The notes under the pieces were generated by a model, which was given only the letters and a program-made list of their open reading frames with translations, did not search any database and was not told the origin of the DNA. Below, one piece after another: positions 420-47,709 of a DNA stretch of 64,000 nucleotides. How positions within the stretch are numbered: the first letter of the stretch is position 1; each line of letters opens with the position of its first letter. The stretch covers positions 158,113,036-158,177,035 of the forward strand of contig NC_085842.1 in NCBI RefSeq assembly GCF_035594765.1. Reading direction: 5' to 3'. The translations under genes and the position numbers were made by a program. Source of the stretch: Anolis carolinensis. Lineage: Eukaryota.

Positions 420-1886
420 ATAGCTACCTTACTGCATGTCCCTGTATGCACCACTTTCTCCAGGGCAAAGATCCATGTGACTCCTTGCTCAGCCGGTAGC
501 TAGGACCCAGTTTCATTCAAGCTCCCTGTGAAACTGGTCACCTGTGAATGGATGGGTCAGCTAAGAGTCTATCAGAAGAAGCACGTGTGAATTACATAAG
601 AGACCTCCTTCTTGACTACACTCCATGCAGCTATGTGAACAAAGGCAGACAAATGCCAAGAATTGGGTCAGAGAAAGCCCCCTGCTATACTTCCAGATAG
701 GCACAAGGTTGTTCAGGAGAGGTATTGAGGCCCATCAGCTTAATTATAAGGTGGCCAAAACATTTCCCGTTGTTGTTCTAAGTACTGTGGTAAGTTCACA
801 GGGCTGATATTCCTGGTGTGTCCTAAATCTATCTCATTTGAAAGTGTTTCTTTAACCTCTGTGTTCATACCACCAGTTCCATTTTGAACACATTTAATAT
901 AAAGATGCCTTTTCTCTTTCTAGACACATAAGACTTGTTTCAAATGTGTTCACCAGCACAGAAGAGCTTCTCCTTCCCTACAAACTCTGACATACTACTC
1001 TCTTGAACTTCAGATGAAAAAGCCATTAAGAATGTTGCTTCTTCATAAAAATGTTAAAAGTATAAAAAGAATAAGGAGGAATCTACTTTTAAGGAAGCGG
1101 TTATGTGAAGAGCCAAGACTTCTTTAAAAGAAATGATAATATAAATAGTGGTGTGGTAAGGGATATCCCCCTTTGGAACTTCTGTGCCCTTTATTAATTT
1201 TGTTAAATATTAAAATACACTTTTGGCACAGCAAGGTAATGTCACAGACTGTAATCACAGCAATAACTTCACAGAAGAGACTGGACATTTTCCAGATGGG
1301 AAATTTAATAATTAATATTCAACAGCCTAAGCAGAAGAGGCTTAGTAGATAAAGAATCGCTCAGAGATCTTTGAACACTTACAGAAGTAATCTCCATTAT
1401 TATCATCATCACCACCACCAGGAACTCATTTAGAATAACATTGCAGGTGATGTTCCAGAATAGGTTCCCAGAAAAACTGGCAACTCCATGTGGTAGTTTG
1501 GCATTACATTCAATTGCAAAATGTCTCCGATTGTGACAAAATCCAAAAGCTGTTCATGCGGCAGAACCAGTATATGTTCTTATCTGCAGTGTAGGTGTAG
1601 AACATCTCCCCAGATGAAACTCAAAACCTGTCTCATAGATGTCAGAACAATATTCTAAATATAACATAATCTATTTTTTTAAAGTTAAATACAGGCTGCT
1701 GCCAAAATCAAATGCAGTTACCCATCAGGAGTTATAATTTTGCACCAATCAATCTGCTAAATTTACAAGCAGCTGTTTATGCAGCTTCATCACTACCTAA
1801 ATCTATATGTTACACTTGGATGGATACACTATGAATGCCATGGCTTTAGCTCTTAAACAAAAAAAAAGGCTTTCATTACTTTGGAA

Positions 1887-2369
1887 TGTTGTTGTTTATT
1901 CGTTCAGTCCCTTCCTACTCTTCGTGACCTCATGGACCAGCCCAGGCCAGAGTTCCCAGTCAGCCATTGCTCCTTCAAGGTAAATCCAGTCACTTCAACG
2001 ATCACATCCATCCATCTTGCCCTTGGCCGACCCCTTTTCCTTTTTCCTTCCATTTTCCGCACCATCATTCTCTTCTCCAAGCTTTCCTGTCTTCTCATGA
2101 TGGGGGTCAAAGTACTTCATCTTTGCCTCTAATATCCTTCCAGTGAGCAGCCGGGCATTATTTCCTGGAGGATGGACTGGTTGGATCTTCTTGCGGTCCA
2201 AGGCACTCTCAGGGTTTTCCTACAGCACCAAAGTTCAAAAGCATCTATCTTTCTTCACTCAGCCTTCCTTATGGTCCAGCTCTCACATCCATAGGTTACT
2301 ACGGGGAATATCATTGCTCTAACTATGTGTTGCCAGTGAGATGTCTCTACTTTTCACTATTTTATCGGA
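1887..2369 (-). mobile_element. RTE/BovB LINE 3' fragment
   Basis: Minus translation IMRRQESLEKRMMVRKMEGKRKRGRPRARWMD, typical of the RTE C-terminus; (CAA)n tail. Confidence 0.85.
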
Positions 2370-2912
2370 ATATTTGGAATACTAATATCAAAATGAATTT
2401 AGAGTTATACACTGACTAATTAGGTTTGGACACAAAACAGAAACACTCTGCTAATTCATATTAGCGATGTAAGCCAATTTAACAAATGAGACAGAAGCTC
2501 CTTTTTATGAAGATGTTTTTATGCCCATCCAGATCTGTTTTTCACCTAGTTCTTCTCTAGCTGGAAAGTTTTAGAGGCATCAGCAGTGAGGCAGTGTTGA
2601 ATTGTTATTGCTCCAATTCATCTACTCAGTGAACCCAAAACAGTTATTCAAATAATTTTTATTTGCAAACTTTAAATGACACACACCCTTCTACTTTACA
2701 ATATTGACAATCTACATCTCTTCTTCCCTGCAACACAGTTACTGACAATGTTGATTTTATTCAGTCACTCGCACATTTATTTTTTAAATGGTTTATATCC
2801 ATGTTAGAATAGTTTCAGAATTTTTAATAAATTCATTCTGCTTGGGAGAATGGCAATATTTAAAAACAGGATGAACCTGCATCCTTTACCTTCAACAATA
2901 ATATGGTGGAGG

Positions 2913-3176
2913 CAGGCCCGTAGCCAGGATTTTGATTCGGGGGGGGGGGGGGGGCTGAGTCTGAGTGAGAGAGGATCTACCCTAGCAAACCTTTTGTATC
3001 ATTATCCCAATACCCCCATGCATATGGGCTATATTGAGCATGATGATCAGATCATGATATGAATAAACATAACAGTTTAAATAATAAATGTAAGGCCTTC
3101 TTGCGGACCACCCTGAGAATCGGGGGGGGGGGGGGGCTGAAGCCCCTCAAACACCCCCCCCCCCGCTACATGCCTG
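2913..3176. mobile_element. hAT-type MITE
   Basis: CAGGCCCGTAG...CTACATGCCTG termini; 8-bp TSD GGTGGAGG/GGTCGAGG. Confidence 0.75.
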
Positions 3177-3379
3177 GGTCGAGGTAATTATAGGAGATGT
3201 GGCTTGAATAATAACCTATGCTTGCTGAAATGTATTCTTACTTTTCCTGTGGCCACCCTAGGATGAGAATGGTAGCAAGACATTCCACTGGCTTTGATTT
3301 CATTGTAGTTAAGAGTAACTAGAATATACAATAAAAATTTGTCATTAAAAAATATGCTCCTTTTCCCTCTTCTCCCAAT

Positions 3380-3381
<2 letters not shown>

Positions 3382-3414
<33 letters not shown>
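3382..3414. repeat. (TG)n microsatellite
   Basis: Direct read. Confidence 0.95.
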
Positions 3415-3415
<1 letters not shown>

Positions 3416-4331
3416 GAGGATTTTAAAATGACTGCCAGAGAGCTAGAACTTTGTTGTTTCTTATGTTTCAACACCACTTTGGAAGCCTTCATTGACTGAT
3501 AGATATGAGTTGAAAAAATAAAACAAATATTTATCCACCTCCAATGCACTTCCTTTTATAAGCCATACCAGATAGCTAGAGAAAATCTGTTTACCTTTTT
3601 TGCTGTCCTACGTTTGTAACTGGGGCCATACACACACCTCTTTACAACCTAGCAAAAATGCAAACACATTTAAAAAATAATGTTCACTCCGAAACTCACT
3701 TTCTAGACCAGACATGTTCTATATGATTTTCTAGGAAAGGAGAAGGCACATGCCTCACCCAAAGTGAACTATAATTTAACACTGGAAAGCAGAAGGCACA
3801 TCTGTCTAATCCAAGTGTAAACTCACTCTGTGCTGAATGGAAGTTACATTAATAACTAAGTGCCAGTCGATATTACAAATACAAACTCAGGCAGAAGTGT
3901 TCAAAGGAGATGAAACTAAGAGCTCAGTTAAACTGACTTGCAAACACAGAGAAAGCCCATTTTAATAAATAATGAAAATTAAGCAAGCAGCAATTAAGAT
4001 ACATAGTAATCATATGGAGAGATAAAAAGTCATACAAGACATGGAAAAAAACCCACTTCATTTTCCAAAGGGTTGAACATGCTAAGTCTCAATGGGCAAA
4101 AGTGATATCTTGTGGTACACAAATAACAAGGAGAAATGTCAGAACATCTCACTTGATAATATTATATAATAATAATAATATAATATATTGTATATACATG
4201 TAATATTAATAATAGTATGATATAATACAGTGTAATAATTATAATTCACTATTATAATTGTATATTTATATTACATGCAATATTACTAATAATATTGCAA
4301 TATAGTTGTATAATATAATATATTGTATGTA

Positions 4332-8287: not shown

Positions 8288-9423
8288 CAGGGGTCCTCAA
8301 ACTTTTAAAGCAGAGGGCCGGTCCACAATCCTTCAGACTGTTGAGGGGCCGAATTATCATTAGAAGAAGAAGAAAAAAACAAATTCCTATGCACACTGCA
8401 CGTCTTATTTGTAGTGTAAAACAACAACAATAACAATGAAAGACCAATACAATATTTAAAAATGAAAATAATTTTAACCAACATAAACCTATCAGGATTT
8501 CAACAGGAAGTGTGGGCCTGCTTCTGGCCAATGAGATAGTCAGGATAATTAGGATTGTTGTTGTTGTTGTCGTGTGTCTTCAAGTCATGTCAGACTTTGG
8601 GTGAGCCTAAGTCCAAAATTATTTATTCATTCATTTACTACATTTATTTACTACATTTATATCCCGCCCTTCTCACCCCAAAGGGAACTCAGAGCAGCTG
8701 TATGTACATACAATATATTATATTATTAGCATAGCACAATATTAGCATTATATATTACTATATTGAACTATACCACTATACTGTAATATTATATGTAATA
8801 TATAACATATAATTAATATTATTATATGGTAATATTATTAGTATTAATAATACTACCATACCCTGCTCTCAGTCCCGCCTGCCTCACAGGCACGGCTGGT
8901 GGGGACAAGGGACAGGGCCTTCTCGGTGGTGGCTCCCCGGCTGTGGAACACCCTCCCCAGAGAAATACGGCAAGCCCCAACCCTTTTGAGTTTTAGAAAA
9001 GCCCTGAAAACATGGCTATGTGCCCAGGCTTTTGAAGATTAAACGATAATGACGACCCGGACTGATTTACGGCTAGAGCACGAGGATTTTGGAGGAATGG
9101 ATTTTAATCATATGTTTTTATATTTTTTATATTGTTTTAATTGTTTTATTGGATTTTTATAGCTGTTTTAATTATGTATAGGCATCGAATTGTTGCCAAT
9201 TTTGTACGCCGCCCTGAGTCCCTTCGGGTGAGAAGGGCGGGATATAAATGTTGGAAATAAATAAATAAATAAAATGATATTATTATCAATATCATATGTA
9301 TATACAATATATTATATTATTAAAACTGATATAAAAATATTATATTATAAATGAAGGCGGGAGCCAGGTAAATGACCTTGGAGGGCTGCATCCGGCTCCC
9401 GGGCCTTAGTTTGGGGACCCCTG
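8288..9423. mobile_element. Non-autonomous hAT (Charlie-type) element with nested L2 3' fragment (about 8860-9273)
   Basis: TIR CAGGGGTCCTCAAACT/AGTTTGGGGACCCCTG; perfect 8-bp TSD CCTTAGGC. Confidence 0.85.
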
Positions 9424-12971: not shown

Positions 12972-13825
12972 GTTCTGGGTTGCTGTGAGTTTTCCGGGCT
13001 GTCTGGCCATGTTCCAGAAGCATTTTCTCCTGACGTTTTGCCTGTATCTATGGCAGGCATCCTCGGAGGTTGTAAGGTCTGTTGGAAACTAGGCAAGTGG
13101 AGTTTATATATCTGTGGAAGGTCCAGGGTGGGGGAAAGAACTCTTGTCTGTTTGAGGTTGGTGTGAATGTTTCAATTGGCCACTTTGATTAGCATTTAAT
13201 AGCCTTGCAGCTTCCAAGCCTGGCTGCTTAGTGCCTGGGGGAATCCCTTGTTGGAAGGATTGTTTCTGGCCCTGATTGTTTCCTCAGCTAAGCAATAATA
13301 CACTACAGTGGATTATAGCAGATTTCAGTGGTTTCTCTGTGTAGTCTGACATGGTGGTTGTTAGAGCGGTCCGGTATTTCTGTGTTCCCAGATAATATGC
13401 TGTGTCCAGGTTGGTTCAGACTATACAGAGAAGCCACTGAAATCCATAAGTATGTGGACAATTTTAACAGAAAGGAGGAAACCATGAACATGTACAAAAT
13501 CTGGCTACCAGTATTAAAAAAACTCTAAAATTAGGACAGTAAATAAAAAACAACACTCTGAGAACAGGGGAATGCCAGACAGGAAACAATCAGGGGCAGC
13601 TAACACCTCTCAACAATGGATTGAAGCTGCAAGGCCATTCAATGCTAATCAAGGTGGCCAATTGCAACATTCACGCTGGCCTCAAACAGACAAGAATTCA
13701 TTCTCCCACCCTGGACCTTCCACAGATACATAAACCCCACTTGCCTAGTTTCCAACAGACCTCACAACCTCTGAGGATGCTTCTGGAACATGGCCATACA
13801 AGCTGGAAAACTCACAGCAACCCGT
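12972..13825. mobile_element. Penelope-like element with inverted (tail-to-tail) pLTR arrangement
   Basis: About 13060-13285 is the inverted counterpart of about 13575-13780; REATEIHKYVDNFNRKEE endonuclease C-terminus; degenerate hammerhead at about 13029-13069. Confidence 0.8.
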
Positions 13826-20214: not shown

Positions 20215-20505
20215 GCCCCTTCTACTCTGCCATATAAAATCCGAATTATCTGCTTTGAACTGTATTATATTGCAGTGTAGACTCATACGATTCAGATTAT
20301 CAAAGCAGATAATGTGGAATATCTGCGTTGATAATCTGAATTATATAGCAGTGTAGAAGGGCCCCCACACTGCCATATAAAATCCAGAATATCTGCTTTG
20401 AACTGGATTATACGGTAGTGTAGACTCAGGTAATCCCATTCTAAGCAGATAATTTGAATTATCTCCTTAGATAATCTGGATTATATGGGAGTGTAGAATG
20501 GGCCT
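20215..20505. mobile_element. Tandem palindromic MITEs of the CCCTTCTACACTGCCATATA family (Harbinger-like; also about 14385, 29158-30045, 46383)
   Basis: Inverted termini CCCTTCTACAC/GTGTAGAAGGG. Confidence 0.65.
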
Positions 20506-27580: not shown

Positions 27581-27801
27581 CGCTAGAACTGTGCACTGCA
27601 AATGGACCCCAGGACCATGAACTGCCAATGAGCAATTAATTTCCCCATTACTACACAATTCCTAAGGCCCAACTTGGCAAAAACTGTTGGGACTTGCAGT
27701 CCAGAAGCATGCTTCCCGCTTCTGGTCTAGAACTTTGATTGACCTTCCTGAGCTAGTTCTCAGTACTCATGCTGGCCAAGGACACCATGCTTGTATTAGA
27801 T

Positions 27802-27936
27802 CAGTGGTTCTCAACCTGTGGGTCCTCAAATGTTTTGGCCTTCAACTCCCAGAAATCCTAACAGCTGGTAAACTGACTGGGATTTGTGGGAGTTGTAGGC
27901 CAAAACACCTGGGGACCCACAGGTTGAGAACCACTG
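27802..27936. mobile_element. Short hAT (Charlie-type) MITE in MIP intron 2 (other copies at about 16087, 22602, 29329, 30285, 38918)
   Basis: TIR CAGTGGTTCTCAACCTGTGGGTCC; TSD TATTAGAT. Confidence 0.85.
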
Positions 27937-28017
27937 TATTAGATCCTACTAATACTTAGCTGTTATGTCTGCATACTGCCAAAAGGAAGGCAGCTTATTG
28001 TAAACTGAATCCATTAC

Positions 28018-28182
28018 CCCAAAGAGGTGTCCAAGAGTCAGGGAGAGTCCCACAGCCAGTGCCACGGATCCCATGCGGTGGTTACGTCTCTCGTCATAGG
28101 TAGCGAAGATGCAGAGGACAAACTGCAGGGTCAGGAAGATCTCCACAAGGATGGCTTGGCCTACATTTACACTGGGGTGCAA
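28018..28182 (-). CDS. MIP: MIP exon 2 ([55 protein letters not shown])
   Basis: ttgcag| acceptor, GGG|gtaatg donor, 165 nt phase 0; AQP0-specific ATYDERR. Confidence 0.97.
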
Positions 28183-29205
28183 CTGCAACCAAGGAGACAC
28201 ACACAAAGACGGAATGGTGAGGAAACAACAGAGACAACTCTTCATTTCATCTACATCAGACTTGCCTCATATACCTTGCCTTATTTGCTCAGAAATTCAC
28301 CTGGGTGGCATATCTGATGAAGGCTGATTAAAATTTGGGTGTGGACTTTTGAATGAAATATTTAATTACAGTAGGTCCTTGCTATTTGCTAGGATTTTGT
28401 TCCAGGATCCCTCATAGATACCAAAATCAATGGATGCTCAAGTCCCAATGTTGTATACAATAGCATAGTAAACTGTGTCTCTTATACAAAATAGCAATGG
28501 AGGTTTGCCTTCTGGGAGTTTAAGAAATATACATTTAAACTATGGATTGGTGAAGCAATGGGTGCAGGATCTGTGGCTATGAAGGGCTGACTGCATTGTG
28601 GTTTGAAATCAAAGGCTGCACCAAGCTAGGGTCAGCCCTAGTTTACATTTCTGGCTGCATATATTGGGGTATAGCAATACTCCTTAATTGTTCTTCCTGA
28701 CTAACTCAGCCATTCTCTCCCAACAGAGGAAAGATCTCACTGTGCTACATACAGAGATTTGAAGTTGGGTGGATTTTTTTTCTGAAAAAAAATTGAAATT
28801 TGCTGAACTTTTTAAAAATACGATATTAACTAATTAAAAGTCCTTTTGTTACTTTAGGAATACAAAATGTATGATTTGGCATAAAATTATATGTTTGAAA
28901 TTTTAAAAGAACAATTTATACAGACAATAGCAACCAACTAAGTTCTTTTTGATAAAAATGTTACAAGTGATCTTAAACTGCACGGAGCCTCTTTGGTTTT
29001 GCTATCTTAGTTACGAACTGGGAAAAGGCAATAAGAACAGAAGAAACCTTCAACATTAATTAAAGAAAATTACTTTGTCTCAACAAACACCCATTCTCAA
29101 AGAAAGAACAAAACAAAAGGAAACTAGGACCAGAAACTAGAATGATCACACAGTCATGGCCCCTTCTACACTGCCATATAATCCAAAGCAGGTAATCCAA
29201 AGCAG

Positions 29206-30529
29206 GTATTAGGAGCCCTTTTATAGAGCACAGTTATAGTGCTATGATTCTGTTTCAAGGACCATGATAATATTGTAGTAGGGAATTGGCAGTAGAGGGA
29301 GGCTCCCACCAGACTACAAGCCCTAGGTCAGTGGTTCTCAATCTGTGGGTCCCCAGATATTTTGGCTTTCAACTCCCAGAAATACCAACAGCTGGTAAAC
29401 TGGGAGTTGTAGTCCAAAACACCTGGGGACCTACAGGTTGAGAACCACTGCCCTAGGGGTTGCCATAGGATGTTGTTGTGGCTGTTGAAGTGGAATCATA
29501 GCATTATTACTGTGTAGTTTGAAAGGGTCCCTAATTAGAGATAAGAATCACAAGGTTTTCTTGGAAGTAGAGAGGCCTCAAGAAAATGTAACAAGATATT
29601 TTTTATTGTGATAGCTCTTTGCATTCCTTTTTTTTTTTTTTTTGGAAAGGCAATTAAAGCAAAAAATATAGCAACAGCCAGAAGATGGGATCCACATTAT
29701 CTGCTTTGAAGTGGTTTATATGGGTCTACACTGCCATATAATCCACTTCAAAGCAGATAGTCTGGATTTTTTTTCTGGCAGTGTAGAAGGAGCCCTAGAC
29801 TCCATCTACACTGCTATATAATCCAGTATCTGAATCCAGATGATCTGCACTGAGCCATATGGCACTGTAGACTCATATAATACAGTTCAAAACAGATGTG
29901 GATTCAAAAATTGGATTATATGGCAGTACAGATCCAGCCTTCTGCCCCTTCTACACTGCCATATAAAATCCAGATTATTTTCTTTGAACTGGATTATATG
30001 GCAGAGTAGACTCATATAACCCAGTTGAAAGCAGAGAACGTGGATCCCATCTTCTGGCTGTTGCTATATTTTTTGCTTTAATTGCCTTTCCAAAAAAAAA
30101 AAAAAAAGGAATGCAAAGAGCTATCACAATAAAAAATATCTTGTTACATTTTCTTGAGGCCTCTCTACTTCCAAGAAAACCTTGTGATTCTTATCTCTAA
30201 TTAGGGACCCTTTCAAACTACACAGTAATAATGCTATGATTCCACTTCAACAGCCACAACAACATCCTATGGCAACCCCTAGGGCAGTGGTTCTCAACCT
30301 GTAGGTCCCCAGGTGTTTTGGACTACAACTCCCAGTTTACCAGCTGTTGGTATTTCTGGGAGTTGAAAGCCAAAATATCTGGGGACCCACAGATTGAGAA
30401 CCACTGACCTAGGGCTTGTAGTCTGGTGGGAGCCTCCCTCTACTGCCAATTCCCTACTACAATATTATCATGGTCCTTGAAACAGAATCATAGCACTATA
30501 ACTGTGCTCTATAAAAGGGCTCCTAATAC
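29206..30529. repeat. 490-bp inverted repeat (arms 29206-29695 and 30040-30529; 344-bp spacer) in MIP intron 1
   Basis: Arms read as exact reverse complements by eye, including matching T16/A16 runs and an internal MITE. Confidence 0.95.
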
Positions 30530-33034
30530 AAAGAAGCCCTGGGCAAAATGCACTGTAGTCAGATCCTTTCCTCAATTGGCAGCTGTAGTTATCTGAGCAA
30601 AATTGAAGCATAATGAGAAATTAAAATGGTTGTATTTAAGCCTGCCTTTCAGAGAGACACTGTATCATACCATTGCGGTCCTGGAGAAAGGATAAGCTAA
30701 GATATAGTTAGCTCTGTGGCTAACTAGGTGTATGACTTCAGGTCTACTAAGCCAGCTAGTATAATGGTATAATGGTTTCCGTGGTGGACCAGGACACTGA
30801 AAGGCCAAGGTCTGAATCCCTGCTGGACCATGGAAGCCTTTTGGGTAACTTTGGGCAAGTCACATTCTCTAGCCTCAGAGAAAGGTAAAAGCAAGGTCTT
30901 TTAAAATAAATTCTGCCAGAAAAAAATCCAGACATAACTCGAAGGCACACAAAAGCAACAACTATACAGTAAAAACTCAACACACTTGGTGTTGCTCCAT
31001 GATAGCACAGCCCAAATCCTGATGAATGAATATAACAATTTCTATGAGAAGAGTGAGGCCAGACAATCCCAGTGGAAAAACACTGCTTTGTCAAGAGATG
31101 CTGCTCAGCAATTCTAAACCCAACAGTAGGCAGGCAATCAAATGCAGAAATGGGGTAAACAACAATGCGATGAGGTCCCAGTTCTTCAAACATAGAGTAT
31201 ATTTTAATTTAGGTAAATAGAAGGACGCTAAAGCACACTAACACAATTAGGAAGTTAGGGAACTCAATTTTACTCAGCCTATGATTGTATTCAAAATTTT
31301 AGTACATAATTGTAGTTTGCTAAAAATTAGAATTTTTATGCAGATAACATATATTTACATGGTTCAAATTTGCAGCACAAATTCGAGATTTGCAGAGTCA
31401 AGATTAAAGCAACAATAAGAATCCTGTTGATTAGTCCCAGTTAGAGGAAAACCACAATACATACATAAATCCCACTGATTCAAGGGGACTAATAATTCAA
31501 ACCCAGAGTTGCAAACATAGTAGAAATTGCGATATCGCTTCCTCTTCCACTGGTGGATATACCCTAAAGTTAGTTTCTCTGAACTCTCCACATCTACTGA
31601 TGGGTATAATAGAAAAATCCTCCTATTCTATTGACCCAAAATTGTGAACATTATTTAAATCCAGCTAGGTGAGGTACCAGTATAATTAACAACTGCATAG
31701 TCAATTCATGAAGAGAAATGTTAGGAACACTTGCCCAAAAATGCAGATAGTAGTGAAACCATTTCCCTTGAGTGAAACAAACTATCCAACACATAATGCA
31801 AAGTTCAGGAGCACCACTGGGGAAAAAAGACTCTTGATCCCATAAAACTAAGGGAAGCACTAATGCAAGAGACTTTTTATTTCTTTTTTTCAAAACACAG
31901 CATAGCAAAGCTTTCAGGTATGATCCTACATGGTTAACATACTGGTGAATTTTGTTCAGCTCAAGGAGATTTACTTTGCAATAAGCAGTGTATTGCTGCA
32001 GTGATAGTGAAGTGGAATCTACAAGGCATCCTACCAAGAAGCCAGCCCAGCAACAAATCAAGGCAAACCCTTGGATTTTGAAAGAGATACATGTTATGAA
32101 GCTAGCATATCACACGTGGGCTTGCATCATGAGATGGAACGTGTTTTCACACATGAAAGATTTCCTTCTATCTATCTGTAATCTAAAACACGAATTGGTT
32201 GTAGCAGGCATAAAGTAAGTGTGGGCCACGTGTCGCCCCAACATCCTTTATGGTTTCCCATCCTCAGTTGCTATGGGATTAAGCCTTGCCTTTCCACATT
32301 ATGTCTGACAATAACAATGCTTTCAGGGCATTGTTCTATTGGCAGGCAGGAGACAAAAAGGCTTTCCCTGGATTTGTGAAAAACCTCTCACACAGCAAAA
32401 CATTGTGCACAAAAAAACAGAGCTCTTTGTCTTAAATTTTAGTAGGATTATTATGGAATAGATTGAATGTAATCAAAATGGTACTGTAATGATCTCATAA
32501 ATACCACTGATAACCCCACAAGAGAAATTTCCCTCTGAGTGAGTTATCTTCTCATTTTTCTCTCCACAGTATACAGTACATACACGCTGGCATGGCAAAA
32601 AAGGAAGGGAAGGAAAGGAAAAACCATATATACAATCAGGTTATTCTCTGCTTTCAATCCCAACATCTATGTCGTTCAACCACTATCAATCCCAGAAAAT
32701 ATCTGGGACAGAAGCACGTTCACATCTCTTATGGAAGCACATAGATTTTACTTGTTTCAAGCTCTAGGCTGTAGAGTTTGTCCTAAATTTGGGGACTCCC
32801 TGACAAGCAATGCTCAAAAACAACACCGCTCTTCCTTCTGTTGTTACTTCTAGCATAGTCACTAGTACTTCAAGTTTTGCCAAACACTCTTATTATCCTT
32901 TAGTGGGTTTTCTGCACACAGCAAATACTCTCTTAATATCACTCAGCTGCAGGTTGCAAGCCTACTCAAAGAGCTCCAACAACCAAAAGAAAGAAAACAC
33001 CACACACCCCAGCACCCCTGCCTGATCCAATTAC

Positions 33035-33394
33035 CGTGTTGAGGGCCAAGTTACCCCTCAATGCCACCGGCGTAATTCCATAAAGCACAGCCGCGCCGGC
33101 CACTCCTCCCAGCACCTGGGCAGCCACGTAGAAGACCGCGCGGAAGAGGGAAAGCTGAGCGCTCAGGAGGAAGGCCACGGTGACAGCCGGGTTGATATGG
33201 GCCCCGCTCACATGGCCGAGAGACTGCACCATAGTGGCTGCCACCAAACCAAAGGCCAGGGCCACTTGCAGAATGTTCAAGGGGCCCATGACCGAACGCA
33301 GCGAGACCCCCAGGCCAAAAAGTACATAGATCAGGGTGCCAAAAAACTCAGCGAAGATAGCCCTCCAGAAGGAGGATGAGCGTGCCTCCCACAT
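33035..33394 (-). CDS. MIP: MIP / aquaporin-0 exon 1 ([19 protein letters not shown]...[10 protein letters not shown]...GNLALNT), 120 aa
   Basis: gccATG at 33394; first NPA motif; donor ACG|gtaatt; strong similarity to the AQP0 N-terminus ([17 protein letters not shown]). Confidence 0.97.
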
Positions 33395-33499
33395 GGCCAG
33401 GCAGGAGAGGGTGGTCTGCAGTACCGGCAGGACAGTCCTCAGCCTTACGCCTGCTCCATTCACACACTTAAACCCACCACTCTGTTTTTGGGGCTGGGA

Positions 33500-33620
33500 G
33501 CTTTATAAGGCTCCCTAGACTAGCTCAGCCCAGGAGGTGGGAACTTCACTCCACTGACTGAACCCTCTTAACTCTTGACTAACCAGATAGGGAAACTGCA
33601 AGGCCCTTATAAAGGGCTGG
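33500..33620 (-). promoter_or_regulatory. MIP proximal promoter with TATA box
   Basis: Minus-strand TATAAAG at 33507-33501, about 110 nt upstream of the ATG; a second, near-palindromic TATA-like site GCCCTTATAAAGGGC at about 33603-33617. Confidence 0.6.
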
Positions 33621-36421: not shown

Positions 36422-37114
36422 CAAGGATCCCCAAACTAAGGCCCGGGGGCCGGATGCGGCCCTCCAAGGTCATTTACCTGGCCCCCGCCCTCAGTTTTAT
36501 AGTATAATATTTTTATATCATTTTAAATAATATAATATATTGTATATAAATATAATATTGATAATAATATGTTATACAATATAATACTAATAATACCATA
36601 TAATAATATTAATTATATGATATATATTACATATAATATTACAGTATAGTGGTATAGTTCAATATAGTAATATATAATGCTAATATTGTGCTATGCTAAT
36701 AATATAATATATTGTATGTACATACAGCTGCTCTGAGTCCCCTTCGAGGTGAGAAGGGTGGGATATAAATGTAATAAATAAATGTAGTAAATGAATAAAT
36801 AAATAAATAATTTTAGACTTAGGCTCGCCCAAAGTCTGAAGTGACTTGAAGGCACAAAACAACAACAACAATCCTAATTAACTTGACTATCTCATTGGCC
36901 AGAAGCAGGCCCACACTTCCCATTGAAATCCTGATAGGTTTAGGTTGGTTACAATTGTTTTCATTGTTGTTGTTGTTGTTTTGCACTACAAATAAGACAT
37001 GTGCAGTGTGCATAGGAATTTGTTCGTCTTTTTTCCTCCAAATGATAATTCGGCCCCTCCACAGTCTGAAGGATTGTGAACCGGCCCTCTGCTTTAAAAG
37101 TTTGAGGACCCCTG
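36422..37114. mobile_element. Non-autonomous hAT element (opposite orientation to 8288-9423)
   Basis: TIRs; perfect TSD GTCTAGAG. Confidence 0.85.
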
Positions 37115-41684: not shown

Positions 41685-41888
41685 CTACTCAGAGCCAAGT
41701 TCTCCCTTGCAAGGGGGCTTGGCAGAAGCAGAGAGCGATGAACGAGACATACTGGCTGCCTCCACAATTTCAATGTCACGGCAGGTCAGACAAGCAACTA
41801 GCTTCTCCCGTGAAGCACTGTGAGCCAAGAAGAACTCATAGGATACTCCAGCAAGGATTGCACCCATTGTGGGTCCAAGCCAGTACAC
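41685..41888 (-). CDS. AQP14: AQP14 exon 5 (VYWLGPTMGAILAG...REKLVACLTCRDIEIVEAASMSRSSLS...GSE*)
   Basis: ttccag| acceptor; the C-terminal ACLTCxDIEIVE..SRSSLS is recalled as characteristic of Aqp14; tandem position upstream of AQP0; total 273 aa. Confidence 0.9.
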   Translation of the reverse strand: MYWLGPTMGAILAGVSYEFFLAHSASREKLVACLTCRDIEIVEAASMSRSSLSASAKPPCKGELGSE

Positions 41889-42304
41889 CTGGAAAAGAAG
41901 CAGAAAGGGAGCAGCTGAGAGAGAGAAAGCATAAAGAGCACAAAGTTGGTTTAGAAACAATAAGTCATCTTCCAGGGAAAGAGTGTGAGGAAGAGAAGAG
42001 TGCACAAAAGGAACTGAGATTGATACAGTGACAGTTTAACCACCTTGCAGTTGAACCACTTTGATGGGGGATCAAGAGAGATGGTCAAACAATGCCTTAA
42101 GTGGGACTCAGTGATTCCAGCTGGTAACACAAAGGTAGAGAACCCAAAGGAGGTACTGGCTGCAATCACATCTTAAAGTGAACTATATTCACAACAGGTA
42201 CAACATGTAAGCATGCCCAGTTCCTCAATTATCACCTACAGAGAATAGAGAACTATCCAAATATATGATGTCAGACGGAGGATAGAGTGTTTCCATCTGC
42301 TTAC

Positions 42305-42385
42305 CCAATGATGCTCCCAGATTCCTGTGACTACTGCTGGTCCCAATGATCGGGCTGGGTTCATGCTGCCCCCAGAGAAAGCACC
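42305..42385 (-). CDS. AQP14: AQP14 exon 4 ([27 protein letters not shown])
   Basis: ttatag| acceptor, TGG|gtaagc donor, 81 nt; second NPA motif. Confidence 0.93.
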
Positions 42386-42974
42386 CTATAAAAGGATCAC
42401 ATTGGCACGATCAGTGATGGTATATCAATGTTCTCCTTTGTTCCATGAACTGACTTACATTATCTTTTTTAAAAATCCTGCTTTTTTTAAACTGGTGTTT
42501 GTCACTATCATTTGTCATTTATGAAGCACTCTAGATTAAATAGATACTGGTGAGAGATAGAGATATGAAAATAACACATTCCTATATTTTGGTATTCAAA
42601 CAGTCAATTTGCAAATAATCTTTTAATTATAGTGCAGCATGTGTAGAATGTAGGTGTATGGTTTTTTTTTTAAAAAAACCCCAGTAACAACAAAAATCCA
42701 GATTTTGCAAACAGAATCAATTCATTATTAGGCAGAAATTTGACATATATTTCCTTATTAAATTATTATGTGTGCAAATACATAATCCATGATTTGTCAG
42801 TGTTTATTGTGAACTAGTGATCACATACAATGCTGTATGCAGGTATATAATTTCTCCTTTGCTTGATCCTGAGCTTAGAATGATATCTCACTGTTTCATA
42901 GATTCTTGATTACATTTGATGGTCAATAATACCAGTGAAATCAAGACAATGATCTGGCAATCCCTTACATGTTA

Positions 42975-43730
42975 CAAAGACGGTTGAAGACCATTCGGAA
43001 ACTACAGCTGGTACAAAGATCAGCGGCCAAATTAAATTAAATTAAATTAATAGCTAGCTATCGAGAGCAGTCAACTTCCTGTTTAAGCAGCTCCACTGGC
43101 TACCGATAAGTTTCCGGGCCCAATTCAAGGTGCAGGTTATCACCCACAAAGCCCTAAATGGTTCAGGACCTGCTTATCTCTGTGATTGCCTCTTCCTCAT
43201 GATCGCCTCTGACCTAAGATCTTCCGGGGAGGGCCTTCTCTCGCTCCCACCTCCGTCTCAAGCATGGTTGGTGGGGACCACAGAGAGGACCTTCTCGGTA
43301 GTGGCTCTCCGATTCTGGAACTTGCTCCCTTCATTGTCCACCTTCCGCAGGAGTCTAAAAACATGGATGTTCCGGTGTGCTTTTGAGTGAAGAGGTCACG
43401 AGCCATGTATCTTGTTTTCAAACTGTGCTGCACTTTAATATTGCCCCCCATTTTATAGGTTTTAGTGTTTTAATGCGATCGGTTCCTTGTCCTCCCCACC
43501 CATCTCTATTTTACTTATGGACTTTACTCAGAGTTTTGCACTAATCACCCTCTATACATAGCAATTGATGTCTTAGTTTTAATAATTGTCATGTAATGTT
43601 GTTTTATAACTATGTTATTATATTGCGTTTTAAATGTATTGACTGTTTTTCTTATGTGAGCTGCCCCGAGTCCCTTCGGGGAGATGGATGCGGGGTACAA
43701 GAATAAAGTTATTATATTATTATTATTATT
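42975..43730 (+). mobile_element. L2 LINE 3' fragment in AQP14 intron 3
   Basis: QLHWLP...QFKV...HKALNGSGPAYL...LRSSGEGLL...RTFSVVA..WN.LP; (TTA)n tail. Confidence 0.85.
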
Positions 43731-44408
43731 AGTAAAGACAATACAAAGAATCTGTGTCTGTGTAAACTGGGGCATCTACACTGCCATATAATGCATTATA
43801 TGAGTCTACACTGCCATATAATAAGAGAAACACATGCAAAACAGACTATTGTTGTATGGTGTGGATATCTTACAGTTACATGAACCAAATATTTTGTCCG
43901 AAATGTTGGTGGGGGGAATGGCTGTCATTCAGTTGAAATACATTTTCTAACCAATATCTTAAAGCAGGGATGGGATGGGAACCTCACATCAATGAGCCAG
44001 ATACTGCTTTTGAGACTCCCATTTTTTCTGATTGGAGAGAAGGGTGATCACCTTCATTCATACTCCATCATTTCCCCAAAATGAGACACAAGGTGGACTA
44101 GACATTAACACAAGTACAATATAATTCAAACATATTAAAATCAATGTCAATAACATTGACATTGACATTAAAAGAGATCAATAACATTATTTAAGACGTT
44201 GAGAAAATGTGCTCATATGCAGAGAATTATATCTGGCTTTTCTAATTATGCTCTGCCTTACTCCATGCCCTTCACCCTACTCATTACTGCAGTGACTCCC
44301 AACCCATAGGTCTTCTGTGGGGTTGCCAGACAGTGGTGAACAATAAAAATTTTACAAAGGGAAAACAAAACATCATGTCATCCAAACATCACCATGCTTG
44401 TGTTTTGA

Positions 44409-44534
<126 letters not shown>

Positions 44535-44559
44535 TAATTCTGAATTTTTAAGCTTGTTA

Positions 44560-44889
44560 GGTAAAGGGTAAAGGTTTTCCCCTGACGTTAAGTCTAGTTG
44601 TGTCCGACTCTGGGGGTTGGTGCTCATCTCCATTTCTAAACCGAAGAGCCGGCATTGTCCATAGACACCTCCTAGGTCATGTGGCATGCATGACTGCATG
44701 GAGCACTGTTACCTTCCCGCCCGAGCGGTACCTATTGATCTACTGCCATTTGCATGTTTTCAAACTGCTAGGTTGACAAGCTGGGGCTAACAGCGAGCGC
44801 ACACTCCGCTCCCCGGATTCAAACCTGTGACCTTTTGGTCCACAAGTTCAGCAGCTCAGCGTTTTAATACACTGCGCCACTGGGGGCCC
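44560..44889 (-). mobile_element. Sauria SINE
   Basis: Homology to the other copies; TSD TTAAGCTTGTTA. Confidence 0.9.
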
Positions 44890-45225
44890 TTAAGCTTGTT
44901 AATGAGTTATAATTTCAATCATCACATTAAATATGTCATACGTTAACATTCTTTTGAATTATATTATACTGAAAAATCTTTTGTGTTTTCATTTACCCTA
45001 TTAATGAGCCTATTTTTAATTTATTGGGGTCGTGGGTCACTTTGCATCGATAAAATGGAGTCATGACTCGGAAAAGGTTAGGAACCATTTCATTAGTGGA
45101 ATGTATTCCCTAAGACCCCTCCCAAATTGGATTTGACTTTGGAGGGGACAATATCATGTGTGTCTCCCTCTCCCACTGCCCTTCCCCATTAAAAGGATAT
45201 CTTGCTTGACTGTGAAGGCTCTTAC

Positions 45226-45390
45226 TGCAGTGAGAGCTCCTGCCACCACAGAGAAGCCAATGGCCAGGATCCCCGGCTCGCCTGTTTCATGCCTCCGATG
45301 GTTTTCGACAGCAAAGATAGTGAGAGCCAGCTGGAAGGTGGAAAAAACCTCCATTCCTAAAGCCTGCCCAGCATTTCCCTCACTGCTGAC
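45226..45390 (-). CDS. AQP14: AQP14 exon 3 (VSSEGNAGQALGMEVFSTFQLALTIFAVENHRRHETGEPGILAIGFSVVAGALTA)
   Basis: actcag| acceptor, GCA|gtaaga donor, 165 nt (same size as MIP exon 2). Confidence 0.92.
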
Positions 45391-45714
45391 CTGAGTGAGT
45401 GATAAAGAAGAGAGAAAAGGGAAAGGATGAAGAAGGGAGAATGTGAAAGAAACATATTAGCATCTGATGACTTTTTACATACATCTCTAAAGACACTCGG
45501 TATTTCCTGGAATCTTCTTTCCAAGTACTACCGAAGGCTGACCCTGCTTAGCCGTCAAGGTCAGGCAAGAGCTAGTAACTTCAGGGGGTACTTATTTAGA
45601 TAATGTTAATTTGGCTCCCATTTCAAGACAGTTTACAATTTCCTCACCCACCATGGTCTTCCTAACTATGTACATTTCTAGCTAGCAGATATTGGGGGAG
45701 GAGGGGTTGAAGAT

Positions 45715-45745
<31 letters not shown>

Positions 45746-46140
45746 TTAAACTTATATACCGCTACTCCCAGTTTGGCTCAGAGCAGTTTACAAAAATAGA
45801 TTAAAACAATACACTTGGCTTTAAAATAGCAATAAAAACAATAAAAACAACAATAAAAGCAACAATAAAAACAGACATAGCCCGAGTTTTTCACCCATTG
45901 AAAGCTTGTCGGAAGAGCAAGGTTTTGCAGGCTTTCCGAAAGGCAAGTAAGTCTCGGGTGGTTCGAGTTTCAACTGGCAAGGCATTCCATAATTGAGGGG
46001 CTACAATCGAGAAGGCTCTCTGCCTAGTAGAAGACAAATGATAAGTCCGTATGTTAGGGACTTCAAGCAAATTTTGGTCTTTGGACCAAAGTAATCTCTG
46101 GGGTTGGTAGGGGGATAAGCGGGGCCTCAGGTACGCTGTT
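45715..46140 (-). mobile_element. L2 LINE 3' fragment
   Basis: ORF 45891..46154 AYLRPRLSPY...RAFSIVAPQLWNALP...FRKACKTLLF; (TAAA)n tail. Confidence 0.85.
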
Positions 46141-47352
46141 GACTTCCTATACACAACAATTGTAGGAAGATTGTTTATTGGGGGTTGGCAAGAGATTTTG
46201 TTAAGGGCATCCTATCCAGAGATTTCTGACCCATTTTGTGATTATTGGATGAGATCTATACAGCAATCTGTAGGGAAAATAGATATCCAATTAGTCTACA
46301 TTTAAGTAGCCAATAGGAGGAGGGCAAAAAGCAATGGATTGAGCAAGGATCAGCAAAGCGATGTTCAGCACCTAGCCACTAAGGCCCCTTCTACACTGTC
46401 ATATAATCCAGATTATCAAAGCAGATAATCCACATTATCTGCTTTAAACTGCCATATAATTCAGTTCAAAGTAGATAATGTGGATTTTATATGGCAGTGT
46501 AGATCCAGCCAGAGTCTAGAAAGAGAGAAAAGGAGGGAAAGGGGAGAAAAATGAAGATGAGAGGGGTAACCCTTCTAGAAGGACCAAGTTTCATCAGGGA
46601 GATTCTTTGGGTTCAGTTAGCCAGAATTCAGTAATGGTGCACAATCATTGTGGGATCTGAGATTACAGTTAATGGAATACCATAGGACAGGGATGTCAAA
46701 ATCATTTTCATTGAGGGCCACATCAGTCTTATGGTTGCCTTTAAAAAGCCGTTGAATCCACGGATGGAGAATCTGTGGATACAGAGGGCTAACTATATAT
46801 TTTTTAAAAAATAGTGGCCAATGCTCTTGGGTCACCAGATATTATTGAATGACAATTCCCATCATTTTTTTATTATTTGTCATGTGGACTGGGGATAACG
46901 GAAATTGCAACCCCAATAATACTTGTGGCTCTGAGTTTGGGGAAAGTTTAAAGGACATTTTAAAGTTAGACATCATATCAACAAGCCTTGCCTCTAAATC
47001 CAAACCCCACTATCCCAACTGAACAGAACAAACTTCAGTCTTCCAGATGTTGTTTACTGTATTTATCACAACTCTCATCAGCACTAATCATTACGTCTAA
47101 TGATGAGGAATACAAGCACTGGAGGACCACATAAAATAACATGGCGGGGCAGATTTGGACCATAAACCTTGAGTTTGACACATGTGTCATAGACTATGTC
47201 TGATCTACAGACACCTGTAATTAAATACATTTATTTTTATTGTTGGCTCAGGAAGACAGAGTAAAGTTTCATTTTCTTTGTTATCTAATGATGGGTGCAG
47301 GAGACCATAAAGAGAAGGAGGGAAAAAGGAAGACAGATTGAAGAAGACTCAC

Positions 47353-47709
47353 CTTTGTGACCAAATGTCCAATGGCAGTGGTGGGCAGAATAAGATAGAA
47401 AATTCCAGATGCTATGATAGCACCCAAACACTGAGCAGTAATATAGCTTGCTGCATGCAAAACATCCAGTTTGCGGGTGCACAGGAAGGCCATGGTGAGG
47501 GCTGGGTTGACTTGAGCACCACTGATCTCTCCAAAGCAGTGAGCCAGGCTGACAGCTACCATCCCTGCGGCAAGGGCTGGCTGGAGCGGGGAAGGGAGCT
47601 CCTCTGTTGGACCAGCTGGGGAAGAGGCACCCAGCACCACCCAGACAAAGATAAGGGTGCCAGAGGCTTCTGCCAAGAGGCTGCCCCAGAACCTACGGCT
47701 TTGTAGCAC
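47353..47709 (-). CDS. AQP14: AQP14 exon 2 (VLQSRRFWGSLLAEASG...SGAQVNPALT...GHLVTK)
   Basis: ctccag| acceptor, AAG|gtgagt donor, 357 nt; first NPA motif. Confidence 0.92.

Follow-up and report, generated by a model that had tools for sequence, protein, structure and literature searches.

The rearrangements closest to the one described here are those attributed to a polymerase changing templates over a short distance. In the four-point description of such events (Loytynoja and Goldman 2017, PMC5453318), a reverse-complement fragment lies between two forward fragments, and the orders 1-3-4-2 and 3-1-2-4 represent switching between strands. As presented in that work, the order 1-3-4-2 yields an inverted repeat with an inverted spacer and accounts for 23% of 794 human-chimp events, and switches confined to one strand cannot invert a spacer. 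The same source summarizes the Ripley model of quasi-palindromes, in which an inter-strand switch begins at the base of an imperfect inverted repeat, whose interior is flipped, a process for which in vitro data exist (PMC5218489).

Related outcomes have been described as structural variants. Inversions in which one flanking segment is also duplicated were termed dupINV or INVdup in a collection whose resolution began at about 5 kb (Collins et al. 2017, PMC5338099), and other inverted duplications with microhomology at their joins have been attributed to MMBIR-like switching (10.1101/2021.12.20.472354; PMC9510932). Short-range inverted copying at microhomology is likewise reported for fold-back insertions (PMC11724301) and for small inverted triplications with 6-bp joins (PMC13334657). 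The repeat reported here, located in an intron of the lens aquaporin gene MIP (AQP0) of the lizard Anolis carolinensis, is a new instance of this known kind of rearrangement, and it is probably either private or false. We favor the reading, at a probability of roughly 55%, that it represents a rare and very recent allele in which an inversion and a flanking duplication were produced by a single inter-strand switch at a hairpin built from MITEs, with no selected function.

The stretch of DNA analyzed, called the window throughout, is 64 kb long, and its relevant features are collected in the table. When the window was compared with itself, the two arms proved to be exact reverse complements at 490 of 490 positions, with 0 mismatches, and they are separated by a 344-bp spacer. 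The same spacer length had been given in an earlier note on this DNA, which had also judged the arms by eye to match perfectly, even in a 16-nt homopolymer (T16 at 29628-29643, A16 at 30092-30107). Exact pairing of the arms extends no further, either outward or inward. Among repeats of 40 bp or more in the window, the next longest exact one is only 118 bp, and therefore the 490-bp repeat is not a product of chance. When mismatches are tolerated, the stem grows inward to 565 nt at 98%, because the ends of the spacer are homeologous halves of a MITE. The 118-bp repeat is an inverted match between 8687-8804 and 36621-36738, 28 kb apart and inside a 226-nt pair that is 96% alike; these are likely two young copies of one element.

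Table. Features of the inverted repeat and its host gene (positions are those of the 64-kb window).
Feature	Position	Strand	Evidence or remark
Left stub: initial ~50 bp of a CCCTTCTACACTG-family palindromic MITE that breaks off at the internal hairpin tip	29158..29208	+	Matches intact copy
Left arm: extra, inverted copy	29206..29695	+	Matches 30040-30529 exactly as its reverse complement; depth near 1x in other animals
Window-only junction 1, where the left flank meets the arm; 3-bp microhomology	29206..29208		Contigs leave the reference at 29206 in 4/4 runs
Older MITE in arm, ~50-bp terminal inverted repeats at 76%	29208..29535; mirrored 30200-30527		Self-BLAST, alignment
Nested hAT-like MITE, 8-bp flanks matching 7/8	29329..29450; mirrored 30285-30406		Self-comparison
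Arm-to-half-MITE junction, common to other animals	29695..29696		Contigs 29427-29741 (X1, X2), to 29757 (X3), to 29710 (X12)
Spacer with 6-bp ends: 356-nt imperfect hairpin of three abutting MITE pieces	29690..30045		Folding, alignment
Spacer pieces: half-MITE / MITE / opposite half-MITE	29690-29795 / ~29798-29939 / 29944-30045		
Window-only junction 2, where the spacer meets the right arm at the hairpin base; 6-bp microhomology	30040..30045		No contig past 30060
Right arm: original copy, runs on into right flank	30040..30529	+	Arm contigs reach 591-3678 letters past the outer end
MIP (AQP0) exon 2	28018..28182	-	55 aa in frame after AG acceptor; then GT donor
MIP intron 1, host of the repeat, 4852 nt	28183..33034	-	Exon boundaries
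MIP (AQP0) exon 1 CDS	33035..33394	-	Translation, GT donor, PDB lens MIP matches, Pfam MIP

Much of each arm is transposon-derived. The terminal inverted repeats of the older MITE (29208-29258 and 29485-29535) are 76% identical, and the nested element, which had been noticed earlier as a hAT MITE, was indeed found and has very high repeat depth in the contigs of other sequencing runs. Its hAT label is one that we presume from the length of its 8-bp flanks and from general knowledge of such elements. The arm had also been said to hold apparently unique sequence. This is true of about 150 bp (~29536-29689, including T16), for which there is no repeat match within the 64-kb window, but not of the large part that the older MITE contributes.

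Two transposon-based origins were considered and rejected. A DNA transposon with long terminal inverted repeats should be accompanied by a target-site duplication and by other copies of the arm. The outer flanks of the arms share no target-site duplication; the window contains no third copy of the whole arm, and in the runs its depth is about 1x, in agreement with the prior view that the arm is not a transposon TIR. Alternative transposition at the end of the older MITE, which lies 2 bp from the outer end of the arm, is disfavored since the termini of that element are only 76% alike and the remaining breaks fall inside elements.

The spacer is made up of three abutting pieces from one high-copy palindromic MITE family. 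Its two end pieces represent opposite halves of the element (88 of 106 positions identical), and each is missing the same initial ~45 bp, having been broken at the tip of the internal hairpin of the family. The absent part occurs once, at 29158-29208. An intact copy of the CCCTTCTACACTG-family MITE near 46384-46510 has an internal hairpin with a 4-nt loop. As RNA, the 356-nt spacer region folds at -185.8 kcal/mol (z -19.8, with 0 of 100 shuffles as good), and its DNA fold scores -99 versus -35+/-5 for 40 shuffles. The left stub contains a 14-bp tandem duplication (29179-29206) directly at the left join. The earlier proposal that the breakpoints lie at palindromic MITEs is supported by this arrangement.

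Other repeat structures were also seen in the window. At 20215-20504 there is another palindromic MITE cluster of the same family as the spacer, with adjacent copies in mixed orientation. This cluster may form a comparable hairpin, and it has no exact duplication beside it. Two imperfect inverted pairs were also observed, one at 13057-13214 and 13623-13780 (91% over 158 nt, 408 nt apart) and the other at 55392-55484 and 55776-55868 (95% over 93 nt, 291 nt apart). Both are probably transposon ends or paired insertions.

Sequence from other animals of the species changes the view of how the repeat was formed. A run search listed 24 runs, 16 of which contain half or more of the query words; the listing named no RNA run, which has no bearing on expression. 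Contigs from four public runs representing four studies (X1, X2, X3, and X12) were placed on 28700-30060. All four are sets of Logan contigs whose library kind is guessed or unrecorded, and such contigs drop rare variants, meaning that a heterozygous carrier could be missed. In each of the four runs, one contig covers 29206-29350 and departs from the reference exactly at 29206. Beyond this point the contigs continue for 591, 3678, 3444, and 1310 letters, and none of this sequence is the left flank of the window. It would instead be the right flank, corresponding to 30530 onward. The contigs of 3.4-3.7 kb fit the right side because no window repeat lies between 30419 and 35367; on the left, repeats are present at 28419-28497 and 27786-27942.

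At the other end of the arm, one contig per run continues unbranched across 29695/6 into the spacer for 46, 46, 62, and 15 letters, so that three of the four runs pass a 31-letter standard for crossing and X12 does not reach it. In none of the four runs does a contig continue past 30060, the sole overrunning record in each being the left-flank contig. Neither of the window-only junctions (29205/6 and 30039-45) and no second arm were found in these contigs, from which rare variants can be lost, and a join of the left flank to the inverted spacer was not among the matches listed. A search of metagenome contigs with a 26-base stretch at the right inner join also gave 0 matches. Among the matches listed, the contig tiling is interrupted at 29185-29205 and 30020-30060, and these holes were excluded from the evidence. 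So were many listed joints from ~29180-29187 to 29690 that might have been taken for an empty allele, because their number and the letters between them point to other copies of the MITE.

Depth measurements are consistent with this picture. Relative to the left flank, the depth of the inner arm is 0.98, 0.91, 0.94, and 0.78 and that of the outer arm contig is 0.60, 0.96, 0.94, and 0.58, values below the twofold level expected for two arms, in contigs whose depth is not a strict copy number and in which a branch may be concealed by the removal of bubbles. A single arm copy appears to be the state in other animals of the species, and their contigs support the earlier suggestion that the left arm is the extra one.

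The arm alleles of these animals are not uniform. A 5-bp insertion at 29277-29280 is present in X3 and X12 and absent from X1, X2, and both arms of the window, and the arm contigs of X1 and X2 show single differences or gaps relative to the window. Because arm alleles differ among animals and the two arms of the window are identical, the event must be recent. The insertion also serves to mark the haplotype that first acquired the duplication. In X12, there are 4 extra bases at 29688-29690, just before the truncated half-MITE. The tip of the MITE hairpin seems to have broken more than once, because X12 carries these bases and the half-MITE is itself cut at the tip.

From these data we infer that single-arm animals most likely carry the order L-S'-A'-R, where L is the left flank, S' the inverted spacer, A' the arm, and R the right flank. 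The window reads L-A-S-A'-R. Because contigs of other animals cross 29695/6, this join is part of the common state, and because the two orders differ as they do, the new joins are those at 29205/6 and 30039-45. Compared with the common allele, whose L-S' join is reconstructed, the window would accordingly carry the spacer in the opposite orientation. This assignment overturns that of the earlier account, which had taken the arm-to-MITE join at 29695/6 as new; the window-only inner join is on the right.

The orientation of the spacer bears directly on a simpler explanation, an intra-strand fold-back in which an arm was inserted into an intact left MITE of an ancestor with the order L-S-A'-R. 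The window by itself fits this equally well, as 481 nt inserted with 6- and 3-bp microhomology, and insertions of this type at breaks are documented (PMC11724301). Target-site duplications give no pointer in the sequence as to which half-MITE belongs to the left stub, and by sequence the stub pairs better with the half at 29696, as a fold-back would have it. However, a fold-back leaves the spacer in its ancestral orientation and puts the new inner join on the extra arm, the reverse of what the contigs indicate. The arm of single-arm animals joins the half at 29696 (in three of four runs by the 31-letter standard, and with 15 letters in the fourth), and the required 30039/40 join occurs in none of the four runs. 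The fold-back would then require a further step, either a subsequent independent inversion of the spacer or the coexistence of both orientations within the species. The yeast cases given in PMC11724301 are also mostly 5-34 bp. We regard the fold-back as very unlikely. The original proposal of a fold-back or template switch is thus retained for a very recent event of the template-switch type, and not for a simple intra-strand fold-back, which cannot invert the spacer.

On the favored reading, an inter-strand switch would have acted on an ancestor with the order L-S'-A'-R. Synthesis of a nascent strand would be halted at one foot of the MITE hairpin, the end of that strand would pair with the opposite parental strand, and 840 nt comprising the spacer and the arm would be copied backwards before the original template was rejoined at the other foot of the hairpin. 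One switch would use 6 exact bases within MITE halves that are 83% alike, and the other 3 bases. The product, L-A-S-A'-R, would represent a net gain of 481 bp with no sequence lost. An extra slip in the same event may account for the 14-bp tandem copy at the left join. This proposal draws on the exact arms, the junction microhomologies, the hairpin, and the arm-to-spacer join of other animals; the path of the polymerase, and the occurrence of the event in an animal at all, are presumed.

In the four-point notation, the switch order on the inferred allele is 1-3-4-2, with points at 0, 3, 359, and 843. Joining F1, the reverse complement of F2 (840 nt), and F3 recreates the window, which is true by construction given that the ancestor was assembled from window slices. 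Point 4 does not come before point 1, both inner switch points are at the base of the 356-nt hairpin, and the outcome is a perfect inverted repeat with an inverted spacer in which the half at 29696 abuts the arm that leads to the non-left flank. As in the events of Loytynoja and Goldman, a reverse-complement fragment made by inter-strand switching is set between two forward ones. Unlike the short examples shown in PMC5453318, the lizard event has an 840-nt fragment rather than one of tens of bases, a 490-bp arm, and a MITE-built hairpin at its switch points. It works like a member of the four-point switch class and is better filed as a structural variant.

Other known systems match in part. 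Compared with the contigs of the four runs, the window holds an inverted segment and an adjacent gain, as in dupINV and INVdup, but the event is sub-kilobase and is defined against an inferred allele, unlike those resolved in PMC5338099. Like the inverted duplications of 10.1101/2021.12.20.472354 and PMC9510932, it has microhomology at its joins. It resembles the Ripley-type switch in starting at the foot of an imperfect repeat and flipping the interior; it differs in that copying overran the far foot by 484 nt and duplicated flanking DNA, and in that the MITE halves were not homogenized. Short-range inverted copying at microhomology is shared with the fold-backs of PMC11724301 and the triplications of PMC13334657. 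The former are described as intra-strand events, whereas the lizard spacer of 344 bp is inverted, and the latter have a 30-bp spacer and three copies, each of about 150 bp, in contrast to two copies here. A search of titles and abstract openings for MITE families or such events in anoles returned nothing specific, which is no proof of absence.

Some observations weigh against the switch reading. Microhomology of 3 bp or more is expected by chance at 5.9%, so that the left junction is near chance; the figure for 6 bp or more is 0.2%, with the 6 bp at the right junction sitting within MITE halves that are 83% alike. Copying 840 nt requires long single-stranded DNA at a fork, and this length far exceeds the examples in PMC5453318 (a 69-bp cluster, a 6-bp spacer). 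PMC5218489 describes polymerases carrying out this double switch at cruciforms in vitro. Moreover, each window-only junction was seen in 0 of 4 runs, and hence support for the allele comes from the window alone.

These points lead to the rival explanation that the animal carries the common allele and that the window derives from a chimera, be it a clone or an amplified molecule, or from a spacer contig placed in the wrong orientation. A template switch at the hairpin could have taken place in E. coli, during PCR, or during strand-displacement amplification; alternatively, gap closing could have extended a mis-oriented spacer contig and joined it through the similar MITE halves. The missing window-only junctions fit such an origin, as do the great stability of the spacer hairpin and the identity of the arms even through the 16-nt run, a stretch over which the X2 contig has one unitemized gap. 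PCR is reported to give single and double template switches at cruciforms (PMC5218489). In a human survey of 729 inversion sites, 38 were reference errors or rare alleles, about as frequent as the 40 inverted duplications (10.1101/2021.12.20.472354).

Nevertheless, the window has no N, its translated exons are intact, and the repeat is the only exact one above 118 bp in 64 kb. An assembler would need reads over joins of only 3 and 6 exact shared bases, and k-mer or overlap assemblers do not normally create such joins. A single chimeric molecule would also have had to outvote true reads. A literature search for precedents of this assembly artefact brought up nothing to the point, which does not prove their absence from print. 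An artefact, flagged as a real alternative at the outset, is still a live rival that we consider quite possible, and it would become much more likely if any of the four runs proved to be from the source animal.

The placement of the repeat in MIP intron 1 agrees with the first description of the locus. The best PDB matches of the exon 1 protein are lens MIP chains (E 1.7e-51, vs 6e-39 for AQP2), and the translation also matches Pfam MIP. Two small runs, X19 and X20, contain 0.11 and 0.10 of the words of 27900-33500, approximately the share contributed by the two MIP exons (525/5601 bases), and are possibly eye RNA. A second, divergent aquaporin gene is located upstream of MIP on the minus strand (~41685-47700), with NPA exons near 47508 and 42373 and a last exon near 41885. 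AQP14 is described as aqp0-linked in lamprey, present in sauropsids, and degraded in eutherians (PMC4245216), and by position the second gene fits as a candidate AQP14.

Inverted repeats within introns are familiar sources of dsRNA, with inverted Alu pairs and hairpin-RNA loci as examples, and ADAR could edit a perfect stem in the pre-mRNA of a carrier. Like inverted Alu pairs, the lizard repeat would form a long stem in pre-mRNA: both arms are in one transcript, and a 1421-nt intron RNA containing them is predicted to form a perfect stem, at -1170 kcal/mol. Alu pairs result from two insertions, whereas the lizard arms come from a local duplication.

One reading of the stem is a hairpin-RNA element, fixed or common and under selection, that would regulate MIP by way of ADAR editing, nuclear retention, Dicer, or splicing. 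We consider this extremely unlikely. The second arm occurs in 0 of 4 runs from four studies, in contigs that drop rare variants; the stem lies 1023 nt from the 3' splice site and 2505 nt from the 5' splice site, in an intron that is excised; and a long imperfect hairpin is already present in the inferred common allele. The repeat is probably not a working regulatory element of MIP. The predicted MIP pre-mRNA with about 490 bp of dsRNA is compatible with both arms being in intron 1, but the failure to find the second arm elsewhere argues against it as a feature of the species.

A much broader claim can be framed, in which head-to-head MITE clusters throughout lizard genomes are recurrent sites of fork stalling that seed kilobase inter-strand template switches and perfect hairpins of several hundred bases. 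Private intronic hairpins would then segregate, the MIP pre-mRNA of carriers would serve as an ADAR or Dicer substrate, and lens AQP0 would be affected. We judge this to be very unlikely. If the repeat is an artefact, the reference intron contains a 481-bp false duplication and a flipped spacer, an error type worth screening for at palindromic MITE clusters. If instead it is real, it provides a clean before-and-after example of an 840-nt inter-strand switch at the foot of a transposon-built hairpin, and would point to palindromic MITE clusters as drivers of small complex rearrangements in lizards.
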